64,000 nucleotides of DNA from an uncultured Bacteroidaceae bacterium (GTDB taxonomy: Bacteria; Bacteroidota; Bacteroidia; Bacteroidales; Bacteroidaceae): the NCBI GenBank assembly GCA_905235525.1, contig CAJOLW010000025.1, positions 3,452-67,451 of the forward strand. Reading direction: 5' to 3'. This document shows, one piece after another, positions 7,044 to 22,551 of the stretch (its first letter is position 1; the number at the start of each line of letters is the position of its first letter). The notes under the pieces are model-generated. The model made no database searches. It was given only the letters and a program-made list of their open reading frames with translations, and was not told the origin of the DNA. A program made the translations under genes and the position numbers.

Positions 7044-8279
7044 ATGAAGATACAGCAATACTTCCTACTGCTTGCAATCATCATTGGCGGTGTGTTTGCC
7101 GCACTGATGTGGCTGACGTTCAGCGTCCGTCCTGTCATCTTCTATGTGACAGAAGGGGTGCTGGTGGTGGTGATTGCCTATCTCATTTTCTTCTACCGAA
7201 AAGTCATCCGTCCCATCGACACGCTGACCAGCGGCATGGAACTGCTGCGCGACCAAGACATGAGCACCACACTCGCCACTTCGGGACAAAGGGAGACTGA
7301 CGAAATCGTGAAAACCTTCAATGCCCTCATCACCCGACTGCGCAATGAACACCTGCGACTCGACGAACAGAACACCTTCCTCAACCTGCTCATCGATGCC
7401 TCGCCGATGGGTGTCATCCTCTGCGACCTCTCAGGCAATGTCCGTTCGATGAACCCTGCTGCCAAGCAGATGCTCACTCCTGCACTTTCGGAGGCACTCA
7501 AGTCACTCCCTTTAGGAAAGGACACGACCCTCCGACTCAGTAATTCACAAATCTACCACCTCTCTCATCTTTCCTTCCGCGACCGAGGCTATCAGCACCC
7601 CTTCTTCCTCATCGAGTCACTGACCTCCGAGGTGATGAAAGCCGAGAAAGCCGCCTATGAAAAGGTCATCCGCATGATTGCCCATGAGGTGAACAACAAT
7701 GTGGCAGGAATTATAAGCACCTTAGATATCATCCAGACGGAACTGCCTGACAACACCGCACAAGAAGCCCTTGAAGCCAGTCGCGAACGCACCCAAAAGA
7801 TGGCTGAGTTCGTCACTCGCTTTGCCAATGTCGTGAAGGTGCCAGAACCTCAACTCACTCTTTGCGACCTGAGCGAGGAAGTGGAAGCCTGTCACTCCTT
7901 CCTCGAAGGGCTTTGCCACACCCACCACATCCGTCTGACCCTCAATCTCACCGATGATGCCACCCCTGTGCACCTTGACACCACATTATTCCAGCAGGTG
8001 CTTGTAAACATTGTAAAGAACGCCATTGAAAGCATTAGCAATGAGGGTGAAATACACATAGAGACCCAACCCAAGACCCTCACCATCACCGACAACGGCA
8101 AGGGCATCTCTCCCGAAGTTGCCCAACACATCTTCACACCTTTCTATTCCACCAAACCCCAAGGCCAAGGGCTGGGATTACTTCTGATTCGTGACATCCT
8201 CACCAAACACGGCTGCACGTTCACCCTCCTCACCAACCCTGACGATGGACTGACCCGCTTCACCATCCTCTTCCCATAA
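7044..8279 (+). CDS. sensor histidine kinase (NtrB-like partner of the sigma-54 regulator)
   Basis: 411 aa with two N-terminal TM helices, H-box IAHEVNNNVAGI, N-box VLVNIVKNAIES and G-boxes DNGKGI / GQGLGLLLIRDI. Confidence 0.88.
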   Translation: MKIQQYFLLLAIIIGGVFAALMWLTFSVRPVIFYVTEGVLVVVIAYLIFFYRKVIRPIDTLTSGMELLRDQDMSTTLATSGQRETDEIVKTFNALITRLRNEHLRLDEQNTFLNLLIDASPMGVILCDLSGNVRSMNPAAKQMLTPALSEALKSLPLGKDTTLRLSNSQIYHLSHLSFRDRGYQHPFFLIESLTSEVMKAEKAAYEKVIRMIAHEVNNNVAGIISTLDIIQTELPDNTAQEALEASRERTQKMAEFVTRFANVVKVPEPQLTLCDLSEEVEACHSFLEGLCHTHHIRLTLNLTDDATPVHLDTTLFQQVLVNIVKNAIESISNEGEIHIETQPKTLTITDNGKGISPEVAQHIFTPFYSTKPQGQGLGLLLIRDILTKHGCTFTLLTNPDDGLTRFTILFP

Positions 8280-8384
8280 CAAAGAGTGTCATCAAACAAA
8301 ATATCAAAGTGAAGATGAACAAATATGTCAAAACAAACGGTACAAAAAGAGCGGTAACAATCCAGAAATGAAGAAAAAATGTAT

Positions 8385-8433
8385 TGGTACACAACTTTGT
8401 GGTCCACAAACTTGTGTACCAATGTTTTTATTT
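8385..8433 (+). terminator. hairpin plus T-rich tail after the kinase gene
   Basis: TGGTACACAACTTTGTGG tc CACAAACTTGTGTACCA (17/18 bp stem) is followed by ATGTTTTTATTTG. Confidence 0.55.
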
Positions 8434-8434
8434 G

Positions 8435-8442
8435 TACTTTTG
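8435..8442 (+). promoter_or_regulatory. Bacteroidota -7 box (TACTTTTG) for the ATPase gene
   Basis: Matches TAnnTTTG, 29 nt upstream of ATG 8471. Confidence 0.45.
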
Positions 8443-8470
8443 CAACGAAAATTAAAAAGAAACAAGACTT

Positions 8471-9598
8471 ATGAACAAGCCATTTATCTATGGAACTGCT
8501 GTCGGTGGAGAGAATTTCACAGACAGAGTGCAGGAAACACGAAGACTGAGAATGGACTTCGAAAATGGACTGAACGCCATCCTGATTTCCCCTCGAAGAA
8601 TGGGAAAAACCTCTCTGGTGCAGAAAGTGAGGAATGAAATGACGGATGAGAAGATTAAGGTGATCTACATGGACATCTACGACTGCAGAAGTGAGTACGA
8701 TTTTCTGGAGCGCTTTGCTTCCATTCTCATCAAGCAGACGGCAGGGAAAGTGGAGATGTTAGCATCCACTGTGATGGAGTTCCTCACAAGAGTTGTTCCC
8801 AAAGTCTCTTTCAGCCCAGAACCCAACTCGGAGTTTTCGCTGTCCCTTGGCATCAACCCTGAAACACATACTCCTGATGAAATACTGAACTTACCTGAAC
8901 GCATTGCGGAAAAACGGGGTGTCCACATCATCGTGTGCATTGACGAGTTTCAACAAGTGGGCGAATTTCCGGATAGTCTCAATGTGCAGAAGCGTATGCG
9001 TGGTGCGTGGCAACACCATAAGAATGCCTCCTACTGTATGTTCGGTAGCAAAAAGCATTTGATGATGAAAATCTTTCAGAGCAAACGGATGCCTTTCTAC
9101 AAGTTTGGCGACACCATATTCCTCGACAAAATACCCGATGCTGACTGGGTTGCTTTTATCCAGTCACGCTTTGCCAACAAGGAGAAAAGCATATCTGAAG
9201 ACTTTGCCAAACGTATCTGCCGCACCGTGGATGGGCACTCTTCATACGTCCAGGAACTGGCATGGAATGTATTTGTCGAAACAGAACGTGAAGTTACTGA
9301 GGACTCGTTCCAAAGGGGGCTTGATGAATTGCTCCATCAAAACTCAGCCCTTTTCCAAAGCCGAATCGAAACACTCACCTCTTTTCAGATGAATTTTCTT
9401 CGTGCCTTGTGTGATGGAATCCACAGTGATTTTGGCAGCAAACGCATCATAGACGCTTACCATTTAGGTACCAAATCAAACATCACCCGTCTCAAGAGCA
9501 GCCTTGAAGACAAGGAACTCATTGAGACCAGCAAGGGGGCAACCACCATTGCAGACCCAGTGTTTTTATTGTGGTTCAAAAGGGAATACATGTCATAA
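8471..9598 (+). CDS. ATP-binding protein (Orc1/Cdc6-like 'archaeal ATPase' family AAA+)
   Basis: 375 aa with Walker A SPRRMGKTSLV and Walker B IIVCIDEFQQ. The C-terminal part resembles a winged-helix module. The family assignment is from memory of this architecture. Confidence 0.7.
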   Translation: MNKPFIYGTAVGGENFTDRVQETRRLRMDFENGLNAILISPRRMGKTSLVQKVRNEMTDEKIKVIYMDIYDCRSEYDFLERFASILIKQTAGKVEMLASTVMEFLTRVVPKVSFSPEPNSEFSLSLGINPETHTPDEILNLPERIAEKRGVHIIVCIDEFQQVGEFPDSLNVQKRMRGAWQHHKNASYCMFGSKKHLMMKIFQSKRMPFYKFGDTIFLDKIPDADWVAFIQSRFANKEKSISEDFAKRICRTVDGHSSYVQELAWNVFVETEREVTEDSFQRGLDELLHQNSALFQSRIETLTSFQMNFLRALCDGIHSDFGSKRIIDAYHLGTKSNITRLKSSLEDKELIETSKGATTIADPVFLLWFKREYMS

Positions 9599-9644
9599 GT
9601 GTCCCATTTACCTCCTTACGGTTTCCTTCGATTCCATAACAAGA

Positions 9645-9683
9645 GTGTCCATTTCCGAACACCAAGTGTCCAGAAATGGACAC
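9645..9683 (+). promoter_or_regulatory. second copy of the enhancer palindrome (one degenerate half)
   Basis: The sequence is GTGTCCATTTCCGAACA ccaag TGTCCAGAAATGGACAC. It has the same spacing to a -24/-12 promoter as at 2545. Confidence 0.6.
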
Positions 9684-9726
9684 TTCATTTTAAAGTTACT
9701 ACTGATTATCAATACATTAATCTTTT

Positions 9727-9769: not shown

Positions 9770-11047
9770 ATGAACAAACTACTTATTTACCTACGCCAGG
9801 CTCTCCACATGATGAGGGAGGAGCGGCTCTTCTCCGCCATTTATATTGCAGGAACAGCGTTGGCGATTGCTTTCACGATGGTCATTGCTGTGGTGTATTA
9901 CGCCAAGTTGGCGGACATCGAGCCGGAAGTGAACAGGAGCCGGACGGTGTATGTATTACCGATGTCAGAGACTCCCAAAAACGGAGCAGAACTTAAAGAA
10001 GAAAAGAATTACTTCCTTTCAGATGAAGTGAAAGAATGGTTCTATCCACTGAAAAGCGTTGAGGTAGTCAGTGCTAACCTTAGATTAGAAGAATGGCACA
10101 GCGATAAAATAAACATTTGGAATAAGGAAAATAAAGATTTTAAACCTATTCCCGTGGCGACAAAAATGGTGGATGAGAATTTCTTCAGAGTCTATCACTT
10201 TCAGTTCGTCTATGGACACCCTTTCACAAAAGAGGAAAAGAATTTGAACATCTGCATCATCAGCCGAGACATTTCCGAGAAATTGTTTGGCAAGGGTGTT
10301 GATCCTGTGGGAAAGATGCTCAATCTCGGCGGTGAATTCCGCATTGTGGGCGTGACGGAACCGACCTCGTCTATTGCAGAACAGAGTTTCGCCCAACTTT
10401 TTGTGTACATAGGCGAAGATGAGGCAAGAGATATGATCACCATTGTTTTGAAAGAAGGGTGCAGCGTTGCCGACTTAGAGAAGGAGTTGGAGGAGGTTGC
10501 CCACAAGCGTAGCGTCAGCAGCAAGGACATGAACTATTCGTTCGAAAACAGAGTATTGCCCCATGCTCAACTCCAAATGTCAGGGGGGCGGACGCTCTCC
10601 TCATGGAAAGACATCCTCATTTCTCTCTTTCCACAAGTGTTTGTGTTACTGCTCGTGCCTGCTCTCAATCTGAGCGGATTGGTGGCAGCACGGATGAAAC
10701 GCCGACTGCCTGAGATGGGGGTTCGTAAAGCATTTGGAGCCAAACGGAAAGAACTGATGCATCAGGTCATCATGGAGAATCTGGTGCTCACCCTTTGTGG
10801 CGGCATTGTCGGTTTGTTCATCACCTGGCTGCTGCTCTATGTATTTCGTTCGTGGGTGTTCTTTGCCATCGGAAGCCAGTTCACCATGATGTCCGAACCG
10901 ACCATTGAGGGCGAAATGCTCTTCTCGCCCTTTATCTTCCTTATCGCCTTTGCGGTATGCCTTATCGTGAACATGATGGCAGCCATCATTCCAGCATGGC
11001 TCAGCCTTCGTCATCCAATTGTAGAATCCATGAATCAGAAGAAATAA
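9770..11047 (+). CDS. MacB/FtsX-type ABC transporter permease
   Basis: Start placed at MNKLLIYLRQAL, because the ORF-track start 9599 reads through the enhancer/promoter. It has an N-terminal TM helix, a large extracytoplasmic domain and a C-terminal FtsX domain (RKAFGAKRKELMHQVIMENLVLTL). Confidence 0.85.
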   Translation: MNKLLIYLRQALHMMREERLFSAIYIAGTALAIAFTMVIAVVYYAKLADIEPEVNRSRTVYVLPMSETPKNGAELKEEKNYFLSDEVKEWFYPLKSVEVVSANLRLEEWHSDKINIWNKENKDFKPIPVATKMVDENFFRVYHFQFVYGHPFTKEEKNLNICIISRDISEKLFGKGVDPVGKMLNLGGEFRIVGVTEPTSSIAEQSFAQLFVYIGEDEARDMITIVLKEGCSVADLEKELEEVAHKRSVSSKDMNYSFENRVLPHAQLQMSGGRTLSSWKDILISLFPQVFVLLLVPALNLSGLVAARMKRRLPEMGVRKAFGAKRKELMHQVIMENLVLTLCGGIVGLFITWLLLYVFRSWVFFAIGSQFTMMSEPTIEGEMLFSPFIFLIAFAVCLIVNMMAAIIPAWLSLRHPIVESMNQKK

Positions 11048-14314: not shown

Positions 14315-14970
14315 TTGATGAAAAAGTTTTTTATCCTTATGCTGATGGCTGCTATGGTGGTGGCTGCATCGGCACAAACAAAGAAGGTGTCCATTTTGGG
14401 CGACTCTTATTCTACATTCCAGGGTATCATCCCTGCTAATTACTCTACCTTCTACCCCAACAACCAGAATGATGTGAAGGAGGTGGAGCAGACGTGGTGG
14501 AGCCTCTACATCAAGGCGAAGGGCTATGCGCTGGAAAAAAATGACTCTTGGGGCGGCACCACCATTTGCGGCACGGGATATGGTCGCATGGATTCGTCAC
14601 GCAGCAACTTCATCTCACGTGTGGACAGTCTGGGCAATCCCGACATCATCTTTGCGGCACGAACGATGCTTGGGCAAACTCTCCAGTGGGCGAGTATCAG
14701 TACTCGGATTGGACGAAGGACGATTGCAAGAATTTCCGCCCTGCCCTCGCCTGCCTGTTTGACATGCTTCAGAAGCGTTATCCAAAGGCAAAACTGGTCT
14801 CTCTCCTGAACTCTGAGTTGCGGGAACCTATCAACGAGTCAATGCGTGAGGTGTGCAAGCACTACAAAGTGCAACTCATCGAACTGCACGACATCGAGAA
14901 GCAGAACGGTCACCCATCCATCAGCGGCATGAAGAGCATCTGCGAACAATTGGTGGAAGCAGGGTTGTAA
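14315..14970 (+). pseudogene. SGNH/GDSL-family hydrolase, frameshifted
   Basis: The N-terminal ORF has a signal peptide and ILGDSYS (block I). After PDIIF it leaves frame. The overlapping ORF 14548-14970 carries CGTNDAWAN (block III) and HPS (block V-like). One extra T in the TTT run at about 14650 would restore PDIIFCGTNDAW. Confidence 0.65.
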
Positions 14971-14971
14971 A

Positions 14972-15006
14972 AGCCCCCTCTAACTCCCCATAGGAGAGAG
15001 AGGAGT
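14972..15006. repeat. single arm of the G/C-hairpin element family
   Basis: AGCCCCCTCTAACTCCCCATAGGAGAGAGAGGAG resembles the left arms at 6741, 23443 and 48185. Confidence 0.55.
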
Positions 15007-15007
15007 G

Positions 15008-15086
15008 AAAAGTTAAAAGTAGAAGTTACCTACCATACGGGGTGTTGGTGCCCTGTTTGCAAAGGTAACTTCTACTTTTAACTTTT
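15008..15086. repeat. perfect 23-bp inverted repeat (long hairpin built of A/T heptads)
   Basis: AAAAGTTAAAAGTAGAAGTTACC (15008-15030) is the exact reverse complement of GGTAACTTCTACTTTTAACTTTT (15064-15086). Confidence 0.8.
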
Positions 15087-15243
15087 AGTTTTTAACTTTT
15101 CACTTTTTCATTACGTTGGCTCCGCCGAAGTTAAGATGCACCTCAACAATAGTTTTCATTAGAAAAACAAAGAAAAAGGTTCTATCCCAATACCTTGAAA
15201 AAATAATCTTAGACTTGTCTTTGGAAATAAAGGGAATCATTCG

Positions 15244-15251
15244 TAACTTTG
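15244..15251 (+). promoter_or_regulatory. Bacteroidota -7 box (TAACTTTG) for the ORF6N gene
   Basis: TAACTTTGTAGGCGAAAAGA lies 45 nt upstream of ATG 15296. The same 20-mer, with one mismatch, precedes the helicase gene. Confidence 0.5.
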
Positions 15252-15295
15252 TAGGCGAAAAGAGTATAAGGCATAGCGAAGGAGGAAGCGGAAAT

Positions 15296-15925
15296 ATGAA
15301 CAACATTCAGATTATTCAGAGTAAAATATATGAAATACGTGGTCAACGCGTGATGCTTGATCGGGATTTGGCAGAACTTTATCAAGTTACAACAGGAAAC
15401 CTGAATAAAGCAGTGAAGCGAAACATCAGACGCTTTCCGCCAGATTTTATGTTCCAGTTAACAAAAAAAGAATTTGAATTCTTGAAACAATCTTTGATAT
15501 TCCAAAATGGAATTTCAAACGATAAGGTAAAGGATGCCAAGGGTATTCTTCGGACAGGCCGTGGTGGTGTTCGTCAATTGCCCTATGCTTTCACTGAACA
15601 GGGGTTAGCGATGCTCTCTGGCATTCTGAACAGCGACGTTGCTATTGATGTGAACATATCTATCATGCGTGCTTTCGTTGCTATTCGCCGCATGGCGGCT
15701 TCCCTTCAGCCCTCCAGCCCATCTGCTGACATCACTCAATTACGCAAAGATTTCGAAGATTTGAAACTTGACATTGAGGACATTTTTCATGACCAGAACG
15801 ACATCAACGAGTCAACTCGTATGCAGTTGGAAAACATCACACTGGCACTTGCCGAGTTACAAGGAACTTCACATGAGCAGAAGCCACGGAGAAGAATTGG
15901 ATTTGTGCAGGATGAAAACAGTTAA
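15296..15925 (+). CDS. ORF6N domain (KilA-N/Bro-N-like DNA-binding) protein
   Basis: Start placed at [60 protein letters not shown], the ORF6N signature. The C-terminal half is a coiled coil. Confidence 0.8.
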
Positions 15926-15989
15926 ATGAGATTCCCCTTCACAATACAAACAAATTCTTTTTATATGTGGAAAAATGAAATAAAATGAT

Positions 15990-15997
15990 TAACTTTG
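15990..15997 (+). promoter_or_regulatory. Bacteroidota -7 box (TAACTTTG) for the helicase-methylase array
   Basis: TAACTTTGTGGGCGAAAAGA lies 20 nt upstream of ATG 16017. Confidence 0.5.
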
Positions 15998-16016
15998 TGG
16001 GCGAAAAGAAAAATAT

Positions 16017-18860
16017 ATGTTTTATAAACTCATAGAAAAGAAGCGCAATGAATGGCTGGCATCGTCAGAATGCACAATCTCCGAATTGCTCAAATATATT
16101 GAACAACGCGGAATGATGCGTGATGCACAGTTGGAAGCCATCAAGACATATTTGTTTCTGAAGATTGCCTGTCAGAACAGACCTTTATGGGAACTATTTG
16201 TGAATGGTGTCTTCAATGACACCAACATCGGACAAGTGGAACTGACAGAGACGGCACGGGAAATCTTCAGAAAGAATAAAGCCGCTGTTGCCTTGTTCCA
16301 GTATTCGAGGTTGGAAGATAAAGGAGGAAATCAACTGGCTCCCAAACTGGAGCAGTTCATCAAGCAGAATGCCGACAAGATAGATTACGAGACGGCTTTC
16401 AAAGAGATTTTCTATGGGGTCAACTACACAGACTATCTTTTCAGCCTTCCGATGGGTGCTGGCAAAACCTACTTGATGGCAGCATTCATTTATCTGGACC
16501 TTTATTTTGCGCAGAAAGATCCTGATCACCCATGCTTTGCCCATAACTTCATGGTGATGGCACCTTCTGGCTTGAAATCTTCTATCGTGCCCAGTTTGAA
16601 GCATATCAAGGAGTTTGACCCATCATGGATTATACCTGAGCCAACAGCCTCACAACTTCGGAGACTCATTAAGTTTGAGATACTCGATGAACAGAAGGCT
16701 GCCAACAAGAGCAATCGTGTCAAGAATCCCAATGCACAGAAAATCAACAACCATCAACCCTTGGAAGACTTGATGGGGTTGGTGGCAATCACTAATGCCG
16801 AGAAGGTCATCCTCGACCATTACGAGGAAAGCCTGATGCCTCTTTTTATTTCTCAGCAGAACTTTTATAAGGCTACTTGTGCCAATGAATTGCGTGAAAT
16901 CATTGGCAAAATTCCTCATTTAGCCATCTATATTGACGAGGTGCATCATGCAGCCGATGGAGACATCAAACTGAGGCAGGTTATCAATGACGAATGGACA
17001 AAAAGCAACACTTTCAATTCCGTGTTGGGTTTCTCTGGCACTCCTTATCTGGACAAGGCAGAACAGGTCTTGCTGGCAGGGGAGTTCTCCATTAAAAACA
17101 CCGACCTCGCCAACGTTGTGTATTATTACCCTTTGATAGAGGGCATCGGCAATTTTCTGAAAAAACCTGAGGTGAATTATACAGACAATGACATACAAAC
17201 GATTGTAACAAACGGAGTCAGCGAGTTTCTTGACCACTATCGTGACACCCTCTATGCTAATGGAACTTGTGCCAAGTTGGCAATCTATTGCGGACAGATT
17301 GAGACACTTGAAGAGGTCATCTATCCGCTTGTGGCAGAAATCGTGGCTTCATACGGACTGAATCCCACCGATGTCATTCTGAAATATCATGGAGGCAACA
17401 GGCAATATCCTCAACCGGAAGGGTCAGAGGCAGCGTTTGCTTCGCTCGACACGACCATTTCCAAAATAAAAATAGTTCTCCTTGTTCAGATAGGTAAGGA
17501 AGGTTGGGACTGCAAGAGCCTGACGGGAGTCATCCTGCCCCAAAAAGGTGTCTGCCCTACGAACATGGTGTTGCAGACCTCATGCCGCTGTCTGCGTCAA
17601 GTGGTCAAGAATAGCACAGAAACGGCTTTAATCTGGCTGAACAAATGGAATGCTGACACGTTGAATCAGCAATTGAAAAGGCAACAAAACATCACATTGA
17701 AGGAGTTTGGCAGCAAACAACCATCTGTCAAGAATATTGAAAGATTCTCTCGCATGGAGCACATGCAGGTGCCACCCATTGACTTCTACCAACTGAAAGT
17801 CAATTATGAGACCTTGGTGATAGATGAAACCAACGAGCCTGCACAAAGGCTGAAGGATTCTTCATTGCTTTCTGAAGCAGACGTTTCCCTGATTCATCAG
17901 CAGGACATGGAAAGCAATCTGCTCGCTAGTTTCCAACAGGAATCAACAGAAGAAGTCTGCGTGTCCTTCCGTTGGTGGATTCATCAGATAGCCAAGGAGA
18001 GTTTTGGCACTTTGAAAATAGCCGACCTGAAAACTTGTGAAGCGGAACTGCAGAGCATTTTTGAACAAACGACGATGGAGAAGGATGGCACAAGGATAGA
18101 AAATCCGAAGTATGACCATCAGCGCATCCGTTCGCTCATCCGTCAGGCTTTTGTACCTCTGCGTAACATTCTGGTGAAAGAAGAAATTGTGCCAGAGCAA
18201 GCACAACTCTTGCAGATTGAAAAACTGACCTCGCCTGTAGAAAACAGCGAAAAATATTATCCTAATCAGCAAGTTGTCCATGAAATCATGGAATGGGACA
18301 AGAAGCCTCCACAGCGAGAACAAAGTCCGGAAGTGCTCAAGATGCTGGAGCAACTGAAAGCAATGGGGCAGGATGTGTCAGCCATCCAACCGCAAAAAGA
18401 CCCATATCCAGAGCGTACACAGACCTATCACTACTTACCTTATCGTTTCGACAGCTATCTGGAGAAGAAATTCCTTTCAGAAGAGATCTTGCCCATTATC
18501 AGGGACAAGCATCTAGAGGTGTATTTCAATGGCGATGACACACTGACAGAGTTCAAAATCAACTGCTACAGCAAGCAAGGAGATGGCTGGCGATATATTG
18601 GTAAGTACGTACCAGATTTTTTGCTGCTCAGTCGTAATGAAGACAAGCAAATTGACAAGGTGATTATCATCGAGACCAAAGGTGAAGGCTTTGCAGCCAA
18701 GTTCAAGGATAAACTCAAATTCATGTCAGCGTTTGTGGAGAAGAACAATGACAAGTTTGGTTATAAGCGTTTTGACTTCCTCTATTTGGAGGATGTACTA
18801 AAGCAAGAGGAGCGCAGAAGAAAGACGCTGAAAGCCATCCAAGATTTCTTTAACATGTAA
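16017..18860 (+). CDS. Type III restriction Res-like SF2 helicase with C-terminal PD-(D/E)xK nuclease motif
   Basis: 947 aa with motif I SLPMGAGKTYLM, motif II IYIDEVHHA, GFSGTP, KEGWDCKSL and motif VI QTSCRCLRQ. The C-terminus reads KYVPDFLLLS...KVIIIETKGEGF. Confidence 0.8.
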   Translation: MFYKLIEKKRNEWLASSECTISELLKYIEQRGMMRDAQLEAIKTYLFLKIACQNRPLWELFVNGVFNDTNIGQVELTETAREIFRKNKAAVALFQYSRLEDKGGNQLAPKLEQFIKQNADKIDYETAFKEIFYGVNYTDYLFSLPMGAGKTYLMAAFIYLDLYFAQKDPDHPCFAHNFMVMAPSGLKSSIVPSLKHIKEFDPSWIIPEPTASQLRRLIKFEILDEQKAANKSNRVKNPNAQKINNHQPLEDLMGLVAITNAEKVILDHYEESLMPLFISQQNFYKATCANELREIIGKIPHLAIYIDEVHHAADGDIKLRQVINDEWTKSNTFNSVLGFSGTPYLDKAEQVLLAGEFSIKNTDLANVVYYYPLIEGIGNFLKKPEVNYTDNDIQTIVTNGVSEFLDHYRDTLYANGTCAKLAIYCGQIETLEEVIYPLVAEIVASYGLNPTDVILKYHGGNRQYPQPEGSEAAFASLDTTISKIKIVLLVQIGKEGWDCKSLTGVILPQKGVCPTNMVLQTSCRCLRQVVKNSTETALIWLNKWNADTLNQQLKRQQNITLKEFGSKQPSVKNIERFSRMEHMQVPPIDFYQLKVNYETLVIDETNEPAQRLKDSSLLSEADVSLIHQQDMESNLLASFQQESTEEVCVSFRWWIHQIAKESFGTLKIADLKTCEAELQSIFEQTTMEKDGTRIENPKYDHQRIRSLIRQAFVPLRNILVKEEIVPEQAQLLQIEKLTSPVENSEKYYPNQQVVHEIMEWDKKPPQREQSPEVLKMLEQLKAMGQDVSAIQPQKDPYPERTQTYHYLPYRFDSYLEKKFLSEEILPIIRDKHLEVYFNGDDTLTEFKINCYSKQGDGWRYIGKYVPDFLLLSRNEDKQIDKVIIIETKGEGFAAKFKDKLKFMSAFVEKNNDKFGYKRFDFLYLEDVLKQEERRRKTLKAIQDFFNM

Positions 18861-18873
18861 ACAACCGTAAGTT

Positions 18874-20843
18874 ATGGCCATCAAATACGTTCCCTATTAT
18901 CCCAATACGCTTGAGGGACAAGCAATCTTAGATAATTTTGTGCGTACCAAGCGAGTGCTTCGCTATCGTGACAACGATCAAGTCATAGAGCGTGTTCAGC
19001 GAGGCATGCCCCTTTATGAGATGGAGCAGAAAGAGCAGATTGGCACGAATCCACATCACAACATGGTGATTCGTGGTGAGTGCCTTTCGGCTTGTGCCTA
19101 TCTGAGAGATCAAGGGGTACAGGTTGATCTTGTGTATATTGATCCACCCTTTGCTAGTGGTGCCGACTATGCAAAAAAAGTGTATATTCGCCGTAATCCT
19201 AAAATTGCAGAAGCCATTGCAAAGGCAGAAGAGGAACTTGACTTGGAAGAGTTAAGAACTTTCGAGGAGAAAATGTATGGGGATGTATGGGACAAAGAAA
19301 AATATTTAAATTGGATGTATGAAAATCTCATGGCAATAAAATGAGTGATGAGGCTAGTATTTACGTACACCTAGATTATAACATTGTTCATTATGTCAAA
19401 GTTTTGATGGATGAGATTTTTGGAGGGTATGAATTTACAGAAATCACTTGGATTTGTGGACTAATGGGTGCGGGTGAACGATTTCCAAAATCTCATGAAA
19501 CAATATTGTATTATTACAAAGCAGATAGTGTTTTTAATATACAAACAAGGTTGGGATATTCCGATAGAATTACGAAAGCATTACAAAAAGACGAAAAAGG
19601 ATGGTTTTACACAAGAGGTCGTGAGAGTAGTGGAGGGATGAACTGTCTGAAAACTTATATTTGTGAGAATCCATTGTTAACAAAGGAGGAAGCAATAAAA
19701 TGGGCAGAAAAGAATAGACCACAACCATGTTGGGATACTTGGATTGGAAAACCTGAGATTGCCAAAACCTATGGAGATTATGGTACAGGAACTTATGCAT
19801 ACACTCCTAATGAAAATGTAAATTATGCCACTCAGAAACCAGAAGCCCTCCTTGAACGTGTCATTAAAGCCAGCAGTGATGAGGGGATGCTTGTTGCCGA
19901 CTTCTTTGGTGGCAGTGGCGTGACAGCAGCGGTGGCCAATAAGTTGGGACGCAATTTTATTCATTGCGATATAGGTATCAATAGCATTCAGACAGCCAGA
20001 GACCGTTTGGTGGCAGACAAGGCAGAGTTTGAAGTGTTGGAGGTGAAGGATGGTGTATCGCTTTATCGCAATCCTGTTCAGACAATGGATAAGTTGAAAA
20101 GTCTGATTCAAGGTCTGCGCAACGAGGACGTGCTGGATAAATTCTGGGAAGGAAGCATTATGGATACGAAATTTGGCATGATGCCAGTTTATCTGCCCAA
20201 CCTGATGGACAGCAGTACCCGTCTGCTTGATATACCTCAGATGAACCGCATCATCCGTGAGGCTTTGCCTGACCTGCCAGACGACATCCAACGTGTCATT
20301 GTCTATTACATTGACATCACAGACCGCAACGATATAGAGCAATTTATCAAGGAACAGAATGACCAGACAACAATTGACATAGAATTGCGTGACTTGAAGC
20401 AGGTGCTGGATGATATAGTATTAGAGGATGAGGCTGAATGGGAAGTAAGTGAAACGCATGATTCCATTTGGTCGGGGTGGCAAGTGGAAATGAAGAGTTT
20501 CCACAGCGACCGTGTGCTGAAAAAGATAGAGGAAGTGAACCTGAAAGCCGAACAGCAAGCCATGCAGAAAAGGGCAAAAGGTAAAGACGTGCCTTTCAAC
20601 CCCATCAGAATCAGCGATGAGGGACTGGAAACCATCGAATGGGTGAGCCTTGACTGCACCAATGCCGACAAGCAGGCTCCTTGGCACAGTGATGCAGAAG
20701 TGAAGATTGACCGTCTCGGCTTTGTCATCCTCAATGGCAAGAAGACTGCAAACTTTTGGGATGCCACCATCCGAAGCAACCAGAAGCCTCTCCGTATGAA
20801 AATCCGCAATATTTGTGGAGATGAAACTATGTTTATAATATAA
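18874..20843 (+). pseudogene. beta-class N6-adenine/N4-cytosine DNA methyltransferase (Type III Mod-like), split into 156-aa and 500-aa ORFs
   Basis: ORF1 carries motif IV VDLVYIDPPFASGADY and ends ...NLMAIK*. ORF2 (frame -1) starts [28 protein letters not shown] and carries motif [26 protein letters not shown]. One extra A in the AAAA run at 19338-19341 would fuse them. Confidence 0.8.
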
Positions 20844-20853
20844 ATTATTGTTT

Positions 20854-21831
20854 ATGAGTCAAGATTCAACCGATAGCAAAGGAAATCTCGTGTCTAAATA
20901 TGGGACGTTGTTTCTTATTGTTTTGTCTATTTTTACCATCTTATTTTGTGTTTTTTTATATTTCGCAAATGTGGAATTTCGTAATTCACAGGAAGAAATA
21001 AAGAAAAGTTATGTTGACCATATACGAAGAGCCGATAGTTTATATTTCGACATGGTTGTATATAATAAGGAATATGTTCATGGTGTTAGTGATATAAATG
21101 CAGCCATTCTTACTGATTCATTAGTAAAGAACGCTATCATTCCAAATGGTGGACTCGCACAGTCACAATATCAGAATCTTTCAACTATTATTTCAAGCCA
21201 TTTCGAGAATATAGAAAAACTGCATGCTACATACGATGACAAAATGACGCGTGATTCTCTACTTTTAGTGACAGAGCGACAAGTTTTAGAAGGACAAACA
21301 AAGACAATGCTTGACTTGCATCTGAACAAAATAGAGCATGAATATAGTAATATTACAATATGGGCAGCAGTGCTAACAATTCTTTTTCTTGTATTTAGTT
21401 TTTATTCTATTTTCAAAATGGATGAGTTGATTCAGCAAGGAAATGAAGGCGTTAAAAGCATTAGACAATTACATACAAATGGAGAAAACTTAATTAATTC
21501 AATTTCAGAAAAAGGAGAGAAAACTTTCAAGAAAGCGGATGAGAAATTGAAAAATCTTGTTAATAGCCAACAACAAATAGTGGCTGAAACAATTGGACAG
21601 ACAAATAGTATGCTTGAGAATCAAAAAGAGCAGTATAGACAAATAATAAATAAATTAGAAGACATAAACAAAACTCGAGATGAATACACGAAAATTCTAA
21701 GTGATCAGTTGGAACAAATAGAAACAAAATATGACAAGATGTTACAAGAAAAAATTAAAGAACTGTATTCTGATATGGAGGCGATAAGACAATTTATGGA
21801 TGATAATGGTATTAAGCATCAGGATATATAA
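20854..21831 (+). CDS. hypothetical 2-TM protein with cytoplasmic coiled-coil tail
   Basis: ATG at 20854 (the track start 20848 is TTG). TM1 is LFLIVLSIFTILFCVFLYFANV, followed by a roughly 140-aa loop domain. TM2 is ITIWAAVLTILFLVFSFYSIF, followed by a roughly 130-aa K/E/Q-rich heptad-like tail. Very AT-rich. Confidence 0.6.
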   Translation: MSQDSTDSKGNLVSKYGTLFLIVLSIFTILFCVFLYFANVEFRNSQEEIKKSYVDHIRRADSLYFDMVVYNKEYVHGVSDINAAILTDSLVKNAIIPNGGLAQSQYQNLSTIISSHFENIEKLHATYDDKMTRDSLLLVTERQVLEGQTKTMLDLHLNKIEHEYSNITIWAAVLTILFLVFSFYSIFKMDELIQQGNEGVKSIRQLHTNGENLINSISEKGEKTFKKADEKLKNLVNSQQQIVAETIGQTNSMLENQKEQYRQIINKLEDINKTRDEYTKILSDQLEQIETKYDKMLQEKIKELYSDMEAIRQFMDDNGIKHQDI

Positions 21832-21846
21832 TAAAAGAGAGGTGTC

Positions 21847-22311
21847 ATGGCTGATTTATTTATAGATTCGTCAAATGCACTAGCAAGTGCAGAAAAAGAG
21901 CAAAGGAAGATCTCTCAAAAAGAATTTGAGATAAAACTTGCAGATATTAATAACAGATATTCTGCAACAAATGGTAGTAGTTCCTATTATTATAACCAAC
22001 AGAAGAAAATGCTGTTGGAAACAGAGGTATCTTCATATAAGAACCAGCGTGACAATTATATAAACGTGGCATTATTATATGCATTGAATTTAGGAGAATT
22101 GGAAGTTATGAGGAACGAAACTTATTCAAGGGCTTCTATAGCACTTGCGAGTATATGTACTTTTCTTACAATACAAAATATCCATATATCATTATCTTAT
22201 TCTATTATTCAGAAAATCTGTTCATTGAGTTCTATACTTACATTACATCCTCGTGATTTTTTCTCATTAAGACAATCGTTGAATAATCTAAAAACATTTT
22301 TGGGGATCTAA
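21847..22311 (+). CDS. hypothetical 154-aa protein (N-terminal helical region, hydrophobic C-terminal half)
   Basis: The ORF starts 15 nt after the previous gene and has the same AT-rich composition. I recognise no motif. Confidence 0.5.
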   Translation: MADLFIDSSNALASAEKEQRKISQKEFEIKLADINNRYSATNGSSSYYYNQQKKMLLETEVSSYKNQRDNYINVALLYALNLGELEVMRNETYSRASIALASICTFLTIQNIHISLSYSIIQKICSLSSILTLHPRDFFSLRQSLNNLKTFLGI

Positions 22312-22420
22312 CGGTATTTCTTGTTATAAAGGTGGATATGAGAAACAAGAATAAAATACTTAATACAGACAGTGAGCGAACAAAGATATTGTTCGAAGTA
22401 GAATCTAAGATAAATAATTG

Positions 22421-22460
22421 AAAAGCCTCAATGTCAAACAAAGGACTTTGGGGCTTTTTC
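22421..22460 (+). terminator. weak hairpin plus T-run closing the island
   Basis: AAAAGCC...(24-nt loop)...GGCTTTTT. The stem is short and imperfect. Confidence 0.3.
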
Positions 22461-22515
22461 GTTGGAGTGATGCTCAATTCTTTATTTTCATTCTTCATTC
22501 TTCATTAAAATGTCG

Positions 22516-22523
22516 TACCTTTG
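22516..22523 (+). promoter_or_regulatory. Bacteroidota -7 box (TACCTTTG) for leuS
   Basis: 29 nt upstream of ATG 22552. Confidence 0.5.
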
Positions 22524-22551
22524 CAGTTGAAATTTAGAAAACTAATAAGCA

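Follow-up and report, generated by a model that had tools for sequence, protein, structure and literature searches.

Which function is served by two small genes that lie at the tail of a restriction operon in an uncultured Bacteroidaceae bacterium? The two genes, here called P1 and P2, occupy positions 20854-22311 of the window, i.e., the whole 64,000-nucleotide (nt) stretch of contig CAJOLW010000025.1 (GCA_905235525.1) that was analyzed. They are located between the methylase gene of a Type III-like restriction system (res and mod) and leuS. Their open reading frames (ORFs) are intact and lie on the same strand, and the whole two-gene cassette spans 1.46 kb. Based on its genomic contexts and composition, P1-P2 is probably a portable accessory cassette of gut and rumen Bacteroidales that is linked to defence.

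Both P1 and P2 are real genes. A word index retrieved 540 relatives of P1 and 19 relatives of P2, and P2 followed P1 in most loci. The ratio of nonsynonymous to synonymous substitutions (dN/dS) was 0.08-0.27 in four deeper pairs of sequences, and 0.63, with few changes, in the very close pair formed by the P1 genes of the window and of a related locus, L028. The P1 ORF covers 20848/20854-21831. The ATG at 20854 is the probable start, because the resulting length of 325 amino acids (aa) is also that of P0001, a relative with 95% identity. The stretch had been described by eye as much more AT-rich than its surroundings, and a windowed calculation agreed with this: the GC content was 0.30-0.33 across 20750-22500, compared to 0.42-0.48 in res/mod and 0.47-0.56 in leuS, where it was above 0.5 over most of the gene (500-nt windows). 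The overall GC content of the two genes was 0.31. At third codon positions (GC3) it was 0.26 for P1 and 0.25 for P2, compared to 0.53 for Res, 0.41-0.44 for Mod, 0.67 for leuS and 0.48 for yitT. This contrast in GC3 indicates that the AT-richness of P1-P2 is a difference in codon usage and not only an effect of proteins rich in K, E, N and I.

The genomic contexts of the relatives were investigated in loci from assemblies, species genomes and metagenomes, in which ORFs were called and clustered and the neighbours were named by Pfam, NCBIfam and PADLOC. When grouped by P1 at ≥90% identity, the loci formed 52 groups, and the context was informative in 44 of them. Restriction genes were located directly upstream and on the same strand in 29 of the 44 groups. 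These comprised 15 Type ISP, five Type I, three Type III-like (including the window) and three Type IIG-like systems, two HsdR-like helicases with a methylase, and one methylase. One further group (L107) had a divergent N6 methylase nearby. Other groups were found behind Septu PtuAB, a STAND NTPase or a PD-(D/E)XK nuclease, or between DUF3990 and AbiTii, and two stand-alone groups were present in variable islets with HicB, GmrSD, DUF1016 and HEPN-MNT genes, where they had a promoter-like TAnnTTTG motif of their own. Together with six groups by other defence-type genes, 35 of the 44 groups were in a restriction- or defence-type context, a raw count taken without a genome-wide background. The neighbourhoods of the homologues were thus overwhelmingly of the restriction and defence type and never of the conserved housekeeping type, which the preliminary description had named as the outcome that would speak against it. 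The cassette recurs beside known defence systems in unrelated contexts, and this is the operational definition of a defence-island gene.

Within these loci the pair was almost always the last, co-directional unit of the operon. The gap between the upstream gene and P1 was mostly -59 to +51 nt, and the start and stop codons of P1 and P2 overlapped in many loci. Related pairs were found behind at least ten kinds of partner and in some cases alone, and the GC content of the cassette was 27-35% in 20 of 20 loci tested, in surrounding host DNA of 38-55%. The cassette is therefore separable from its partners, in line with the earlier suggestion that the pair is a unit of its own. ATP-dependent DNA-translocating enzymes (Type I, ISP, III-like and HsdR-like) accounted for 25 of the 44 contexts, although this is a raw count in which the abundance of the partners in Bacteroidales is not factored in. 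The P1 tree clustered by partner into a IIG pair, a short Type I clade and an ISP clade; across its 31 labelled tips the partner changed at least 15 times, a pattern that fits linkage and functional coupling alike.

Further genes were observed repeatedly around the cassette. A protein of ~460 aa with AlbA_2, HATPase_c_4 and helix-turn-helix (HTH) domains was very often encoded after P1-P2 (L004 8656-10038; also L012, L014, L021, L022, L037, L077, L085, L115 and others). In split Type ISP loci it was located between the two ISP genes, and it was absent from the window. PADLOC aligned it to pAgo-associated Schlafen-like regions (4e-17). The accessory set may include this protein as an optional third member. 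A distant P1 clade (~30% identity) was found in a fixed six-gene array (L125 1833-9768; also L124-L132, L138 and L139), which consisted of an HTH gene, an HsdR-like helicase, an N6 methylase, the P1-like gene, a gene for an unrelated 168-aa helical protein and a HEPN-like gene, followed by a GIY-YIG/RAMA protein (PADLOC PDC-S14, 7e-81). In another group (L018, L100, L101 and L103), P1 was followed by a gap of ~600 nt without a called P2 and then by two GmrSD genes; a 1286-aa Type IIG gene was present upstream in some members and lost in others. In L109, P2 was kept between P1 and GmrSD. These last loci show gain and loss around a fixed P1.

The size of the family was determined by comparing 1.84 billion representatives to a profile built from the 210 conserved N-terminal positions of P1. 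The P1 family comprised 326 clusters at 50% identity, and nearly all members had 250-400 aa and the same layout; one member carried C-terminal TPR-like repeats, as judged by eye. A pattern scan covered 185,579 species genomes and yielded 16 loci, each of them from Bacteroidales. None of 24 further species of the genus carried the P1-P2 family, nor did any of 400 additional genomes taken from across the phylum. It is therefore a rare, accessory family that is seen in Bacteroidales only. No matches were obtained in 50,697 phage records or 72,556 plasmid records, and one match was obtained in 2.9 million viral contigs (IMG/VR); a phage or plasmid origin of the cassette was rejected on these counts. 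At least eight P1 groups were located on elements with relaxase, primase or mobilization genes, two of them at the edge of the element and adjoining a transfer RNA (tRNA) gene. In these two loci (L007 ~9490-9700 and L019 ~8250-8450) the cassette was the outermost cargo of a mobilizable element with primase, NikA-like, relaxase and Type ISP genes, and it abutted an apparent tRNA-gene 3' end, the likely integration site. Most contexts, including the window and its 7.5-kb island, had no mobility genes within reach.

P1 (20854..21831, + strand) can be divided into an N-terminal tail (residues 1-17), a first transmembrane helix (TM1, 18-38), an outer helical hairpin (39-166), a second transmembrane helix (TM2, 167-187) and a cytoplasmic helix (188-325). 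Two hydrophobic windows were present, at residues 18-38 and 167-187. An AlphaFold2 model was built from a 56-sequence alignment (mean predicted local distance difference test score, pLDDT, 76) and was all-helical, with helices at 14-97 and 105-319 and a single turn at 98-104. The first helix extends from TM1 to residue 97, and the second returns via TM2 and runs on to residue 319. The outer part is thus predicted to be a helical hairpin and the inner part a single helix of ~130 residues, which would need partners for stability. The layout of TM1, external domain, TM2 and inner helix proposed in the preliminary description was recovered both in the hydrophobic windows and in the model. A count of positive residues weakly favours an orientation with the N- and C-termini inside. 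The outer hairpin has a constant length of ~129 aa: among 55 main-clade sequences the distance between TM1 and TM2 was 121-131 residues, and the C-terminal part was variable (114-173 residues); the total length across the wider family was 254-402 aa.

The best conserved part of P1 was the family signature DLHLNKIEHEYSNITIWAAVLTILFLVFSFYSIF (21313..21414, + strand), which consists of the outer juxtamembrane segment and TM2, followed by the outer hairpin. The TM2 sequence itself, WAAVLTILFLVFSFYS, was near-invariant among the P1 relatives. In 36 sequences, down to 25% identity, the invariant residues were E163, W170, T175, F178, L179, F181, S182, F183 and S185. When read from the sequence, T168, T175 and S182 are placed at intervals of seven, and therefore form a hydroxyl stripe along one face of TM2. 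The inner juxtamembrane segment KMDELIQQGNEGVKSIRQLHTNG (21415..21483, + strand) was conserved in the main clade and replaced in distant P1 clades, and those clades carry a different small partner. This segment is a candidate docking site for P2.

P2 (154 aa; 21847..22311, + strand) was modelled as a compact five-helix bundle with high confidence (pLDDT 92, predicted template modelling score 0.84). A long hairpin (helices 4-39 and 44-88) is capped by three helices of 14-16 residues (95-110, 118-133 and 139-152). The C-terminal half had been read as a hydrophobic membrane tail, and this did not hold: its peak hydrophobicity was only KD19 1.56, and on this value and the confident compact model the reading of P2 as a membrane protein was rejected. 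P2 is predicted to be a soluble-looking bundle without a membrane tail. The isoelectric point (pI) of its relatives ranged from 5.9 to 9.8. In distant P1 clades, where the inner juxtamembrane segment differs, P2 was swapped for other small helical proteins. These partners (k8) were considered as diverged forms of P2, but the hhalign probability was 0.2% and homology was unsupported.

P1-P2 is an orphan family that has no name in any library searched, as the preliminary description, which recognized no family, had anticipated. In Pfam, NCBIfam, PADLOC and PHROGs, P1 gave only sub-threshold matches to proteins with a transmembrane helix and a coiled coil, and P2 gave no matches at all. Neither protein matched any PADLOC v2 model, candidate families included. 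Fold searches were performed with Foldseek against PDB and BFVD. P1 had no PDB match below E 4, and the best matches of P2 (E 0.036 in PDB, E 0.052 in BFVD) were all generic helical bundles such as syntaxin, STAT and 14-3-3. No recognizable DNA-binding fold was found for P2 in these searches. The P2 hairpin was also considered as ESCRT-III/PspA-like, but no such structure was present among the fold-search matches. Profile searches of PDB sequences identified no relative of P1 or P2. The weak matches to methyl-accepting chemotaxis proteins (MCP), ZorA, KwaA, AI-2E/YtvI, ATP-synthase b, DUF948, apolipoprotein and tape-measure proteins were confined to stretches with a transmembrane helix plus a helix or coiled coil.

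Membership of P1 in individual families was also considered. The NCBIfam family SLATT_1 matched P1 with E 0.007 and 16.3 bits, compared to a cut-off of 41. It was also matched by 5 of 56 P1 family members (best E 0.0038), and no Pfam SLATT family was found at E ≤ 0.05 among the P1 relatives. When the P1 alignment was compared by hhalign to 16 genuine SLATT_1 domains taken from Bacteroidales genomes, the probability was 0.06% (E 0.73), and the motifs QINWY and WxxYR were missing; membership was rejected. The earlier comparison of P1 to an MCP-like receptor held for the topology and failed for the signalling part: no HAMP or MCPsignal match was found in P1 or its 56 relatives, and the two share only the arrangement of two transmembrane helices around an outer helical domain. 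P1 was rejected as a ZorA, as the PADLOC ZorA3 match (E 7e-4) covered residues 163-311 only, there was no Pfam match to MotA_ExbB, and no zorB-like gene was adjacent. Kiwa was rejected as well; the PADLOC match to KwaA (E 7e-3) was limited to residues 161-219, and P2 had no PADLOC or Pfam match.

In this genome the cassette arrived as part of a larger island. In the congener G021 the site is empty and a GDSL-like gene directly adjoins leuS, which indicates that ~14970-22478 (ORF6N gene, res, mod, P1 and P2) is a single insertion of ~7.5 kb. In L028 (GCA_965339045.1), res-mod-P1-P2 is present on the same side of leuS with 92-93% identity. Between the window and L028, the synonymous divergence (dS) of the island was 0.06-0.21 and that of leuS was 1.54; hence res/mod and the cassette were transferred jointly and not long ago. 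The preliminary description had regarded the cassette as a later acquisition than the helicase and methylase genes, and the empty site of G021 and the uniform 92-93% identity of res, mod, P1 and P2 to L028 speak against this for the present genome.

The arrangement of signals around the island suggests a common transcript. A pattern scan located a Bacteroides-type -7 promoter motif, TAACTTTG, at 15990..15997 (+ strand), 20 nt before res, and this motif is also found before res in L028. It is likely to be the promoter of the res-mod-P1-P2 operon, as judged from its placement, since the -7 motif is not enriched across the window (46 found, 34 ± 6 expected). No -7 motif was found on the + strand in 19663-22516 and hence none before P1 or P2; a second one is located at 22516-22523, before leuS. 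A terminator-like hairpin with a 12-bp stem and A-tract/U-tract arms (22420..22459, + strand) precedes the leuS promoter motif. The predicted RNA fold of 22312-22475 had an energy of -36.9 kcal/mol (z = -2.76), and the hairpin was missed by a simple terminator scan due to its long loop. With a motif before res, none before P1 or P2 and a hairpin 3' of P2, co-transcription of P1-P2 with res-mod is likely. No third gene or micro-ORF was found in 22312-22551, where blastx shared only the homologous intergenic sequence of L028, and no repeats or att-like sequences were found around P1-P2 itself.

The partner system is located outside the cassette. The Res-like subunit (947 aa; 16017..18860, + strand) has a ResIII helicase domain (Pfam 8e-7) and a C-terminal endonuclease domain (RE_endonuc 0.0055), and clusters with proteins of 954-963 aa from L001 and L028. 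The Mod methyltransferase (18874..20843, + strand; Pfam N6_N4_Mtase 4e-28, PADLOC MTase_III) is split into ORFs of 156 and 500 aa that overlap at an ATGA (19341-19344). Compared to the intact 657-aa gene of L028 it has a 7-bp deletion at ~19341, and a block at 19423-19824 is unalignable and looks like a swapped target-recognition region. The island is headed by an ORF6N-domain gene (15116-15925, true start probably ~15290; Pfam 1.5e-32, PADLOC candidate PDC-S05 8e-51), which is missing from the otherwise near-identical island of L028. The 20 nt upstream of this gene (15244-15263, with TAACTTTG) are repeated before res (15990-16009) with 95% identity. At the left edge of the island, just past the GDSL-like gene, a perfect 24-nt inverted repeat (15008-15031/15063-15086) is extended by 15004-15018/15090-15104, and may represent either a terminator or a trace left by the insertion. 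The GDSL/SGNH-like lipoprotein gene to the left of the island (14315-14970) consists of overlapping ORFs in different frames (14315-14809 and 14548-14970), which suggests a frameshift or a sequencing error. The empty site of G021 (L143, reverse strand, ~10320-10400) contains tandem heptamers of the ATGATAA/TTGATAA type that are missing in the window.

How could such a cassette act? We tentatively favour a model in which P1 is a back-up effector that acts on the membrane, with P2 as its regulator or sensor, and which is fired when the nuclease fails; this specific model is possible, and we place it somewhat below an even chance. P1 would reside in the inner membrane with both termini inside, expose a rigid outer helical hairpin and oligomerize through its variable cytoplasmic helix. 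P2 would be made stoichiometrically by translational coupling with P1 and would bind the inner juxtamembrane segment, where it could either keep P1 inert or serve as its sensor. If an invader evaded or disabled the upstream nuclease, P2 would release P1, the TM2 helices would rearrange into a leak or pore, the membrane potential would collapse and the infection would be aborted. The hydroxyl stripe of TM2 (T168/T175/S182/S185) would suit helix-helix assembly or the lining of a pore. The P1 core appears effector-like because TM2 is invariant across the family while the small partner is swapped. An abortive-infection role, which the preliminary description had raised, is plausible and has indirect support in the invariance of TM2, the exchange of the small partner, the translational coupling and the defence-type contexts. 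From the role in defence and the contact between P1 and P2 to the trigger and the damage to the membrane, the model is inferred from sequence, context and structure prediction.

Several observations weigh against this model or against a role in defence as such. P1-P2 has no homology to any known effector in the libraries and fold searches. The conserved outer hairpin, with its constant length (121-131 aa), is more elaborate than a simple pore-former needs and resembles a sensing or contact surface, and the cytoplasmic helix varies greatly in length (114-173 aa in the main clade and, given total P1 lengths of 254-402 aa, probably less or more in other clades), which speaks against precise signalling through it. 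The diversity of the partners makes a direct physical guarding of each enzyme unlikely. A few contexts are not defence-like (an MFS transporter, an LRR protein and a REC-phosphorylase), and co-location in defence islands alone is guilt by association.

P1 could instead be a non-suicidal sentinel or entry blocker, whose outer hairpin and TM2 detect or obstruct the delivery of phage or conjugative DNA at the inner membrane, in the manner of superinfection-exclusion proteins or of the envelope-acting systems Kiwa and Zorya. The targets of P2 and the stalk would then be the DNA as it enters, or the co-expressed nuclease, which they would keep close to the site of entry. The most conserved parts of P1, i.e., the hairpin of constant length, the outer juxtamembrane motif and TM2, fit such a role, and so do the 25 of 44 partners that are DNA-translocating restriction enzymes and must meet incoming DNA, but this preference for helicase-type enzymes is a raw count that is not normalized to their frequency in Bacteroidales. 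The weak PADLOC matches to the tails of ZorA and KwaA point in the same direction; they (E 7e-4 and 7e-3) cover the coiled coil alone, however, and no MotA/ExbB part. Stand-alone copies occur without any nuclease, P2 has no recognizable DNA-binding fold and a pI that varies from 5.9 to 9.8 among its relatives, and the family is nearly absent from phage records, the usual home of exclusion genes (0 of 50,697, and one match in 2.9 million viral contigs). We consider this explanation the main rival, though rather unlikely. Clearly improbable is the idea that P1-type proteins serve DNA-translocating restriction enzymes in general, as a device that couples them to the membrane or raises an alarm there. 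TM2 and the outer hairpin would in that case mark or sense the site where foreign DNA crosses the inner membrane. Through the variable stalk and its small adaptor (P2 or its non-homologous replacements), the co-expressed nuclease would be brought to the DNA as it enters, or a blocked nuclease would set off a response of the membrane.

The pair may also serve itself rather than the host, with P1 as a membrane toxin and P2 as its antidote, or with some other function for the element, such as entry exclusion; it would hitch-hike on the restriction cargo of mobilizable elements and stabilize mobile islands without any phage defence. The translational coupling of P1 and P2, their rare and patchy distribution, the GC content that is always low and the at least eight groups on elements with relaxase, primase or mobilization genes, two of them at a tRNA edge, would all agree with this. 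The usual antidote-first gene order was not seen, however, and most contexts, including the island of the window, had no mobility genes within reach. The family had no match in 72,556 plasmid records, and its tie to the 3' ends of nuclease operons was tighter than that to element backbones; we regard a selfish pair as a poor candidate. An ordinary envelope or cell-biology pair, such as a coiled coil in division or in the control of polysaccharide chain length, which lies near restriction genes by chance, is very improbable. The arrangement of two transmembrane helices around an outer helical hairpin recalls polysaccharide co-polymerases, and one locus lies within a polysaccharide gene cluster. 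That copy, however, is flanked by DUF3990 and AbiTii and represents an inserted islet, P1-P2 has no Pfam match to Wzz or similar families, and the context is never one of conserved housekeeping. The distribution of the family, with its absence from 24 of 24 congeners and 400 of 400 other genomes of the phylum, largely refutes this reading.

Among the major hosts of crAss-like and other abundant phages are the gut Bacteroidales. To our knowledge, few of their defences have been tested so far. Accessory genes that ride on restriction systems are known; of interest here are the lack of a named relative, the invariant membrane helix and the breadth of partners. If the cassette does act in defence, it would represent a new effector family and a tractable case for studying how restriction enzymes are connected to responses at the membrane, for which Ronin and PrrC are examples. 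Several hundred genes of gut and rumen metagenomes that are now called 'hypothetical' would then receive a better annotation.

Among known systems, PrrC is a back-up that acts when a phage inhibits the Type I enzyme; it is a cytoplasmic ATPase-nuclease that cuts tRNA. PrrC/EcoprrI and P1-P2 are both accessory genes carried by a restriction operon, but neither P1 nor P2 contains an enzyme domain, and P1 resides in the membrane, unlike the cytoplasmic PrrC. With Kiwa (KwaA/KwaB) and Zorya, P1-P2 has in common the plan of a membrane protein and a cytoplasmic partner, and ZorA also has a long helical cytoplasmic tail. The PADLOC matches to them, however, extend over a coiled coil or a single transmembrane helix only; P1 lacks the MotA/ExbB channel fold of ZorA and the four transmembrane helices of KwaA, and no genes like ZorB, ZorC, ZorD or KwaB (DUF4868) were found at the locus in the window. 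SLATT effectors, which occur in conflict systems, and P1 both consist of two transmembrane helices and a helix, but P1 is devoid of the SLATT motifs. Genes that are embedded in restriction-modification or BREX systems frequently turn out to act in defence themselves (Payne et al., bioRxiv 10.1101/2024.01.29.577857). The same logic of inference is followed here, although P1-P2 is located at the operon tail and is not nested inside. The logic of the working model was taken from RonA of the Ronin system of E. coli ECOR55, a 61-aa membrane protein that is linked to HsdMS and becomes lethal once anti-restriction proteins appear (Silas et al., bioRxiv 10.1101/2023.04.06.535777). Its partners keep RonA inactive until an attack on restriction releases it to arrest growth, and the same paper also cites EcoprrI with its PrrC. 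Both RonA and P1 are membrane proteins that are genetically tied to restriction-type genes. RonA has ~61 aa and a single transmembrane helix and is always linked to hsdS/hsdM, whereas P1 is a 325-aa protein in which two transmembrane helices are joined by an outer hairpin and followed by a long inner helix. Compared to RonA by description, with no claim of homology, P1 has a small partner of its own in P2, is found behind at least ten kinds of system and also occurs alone.

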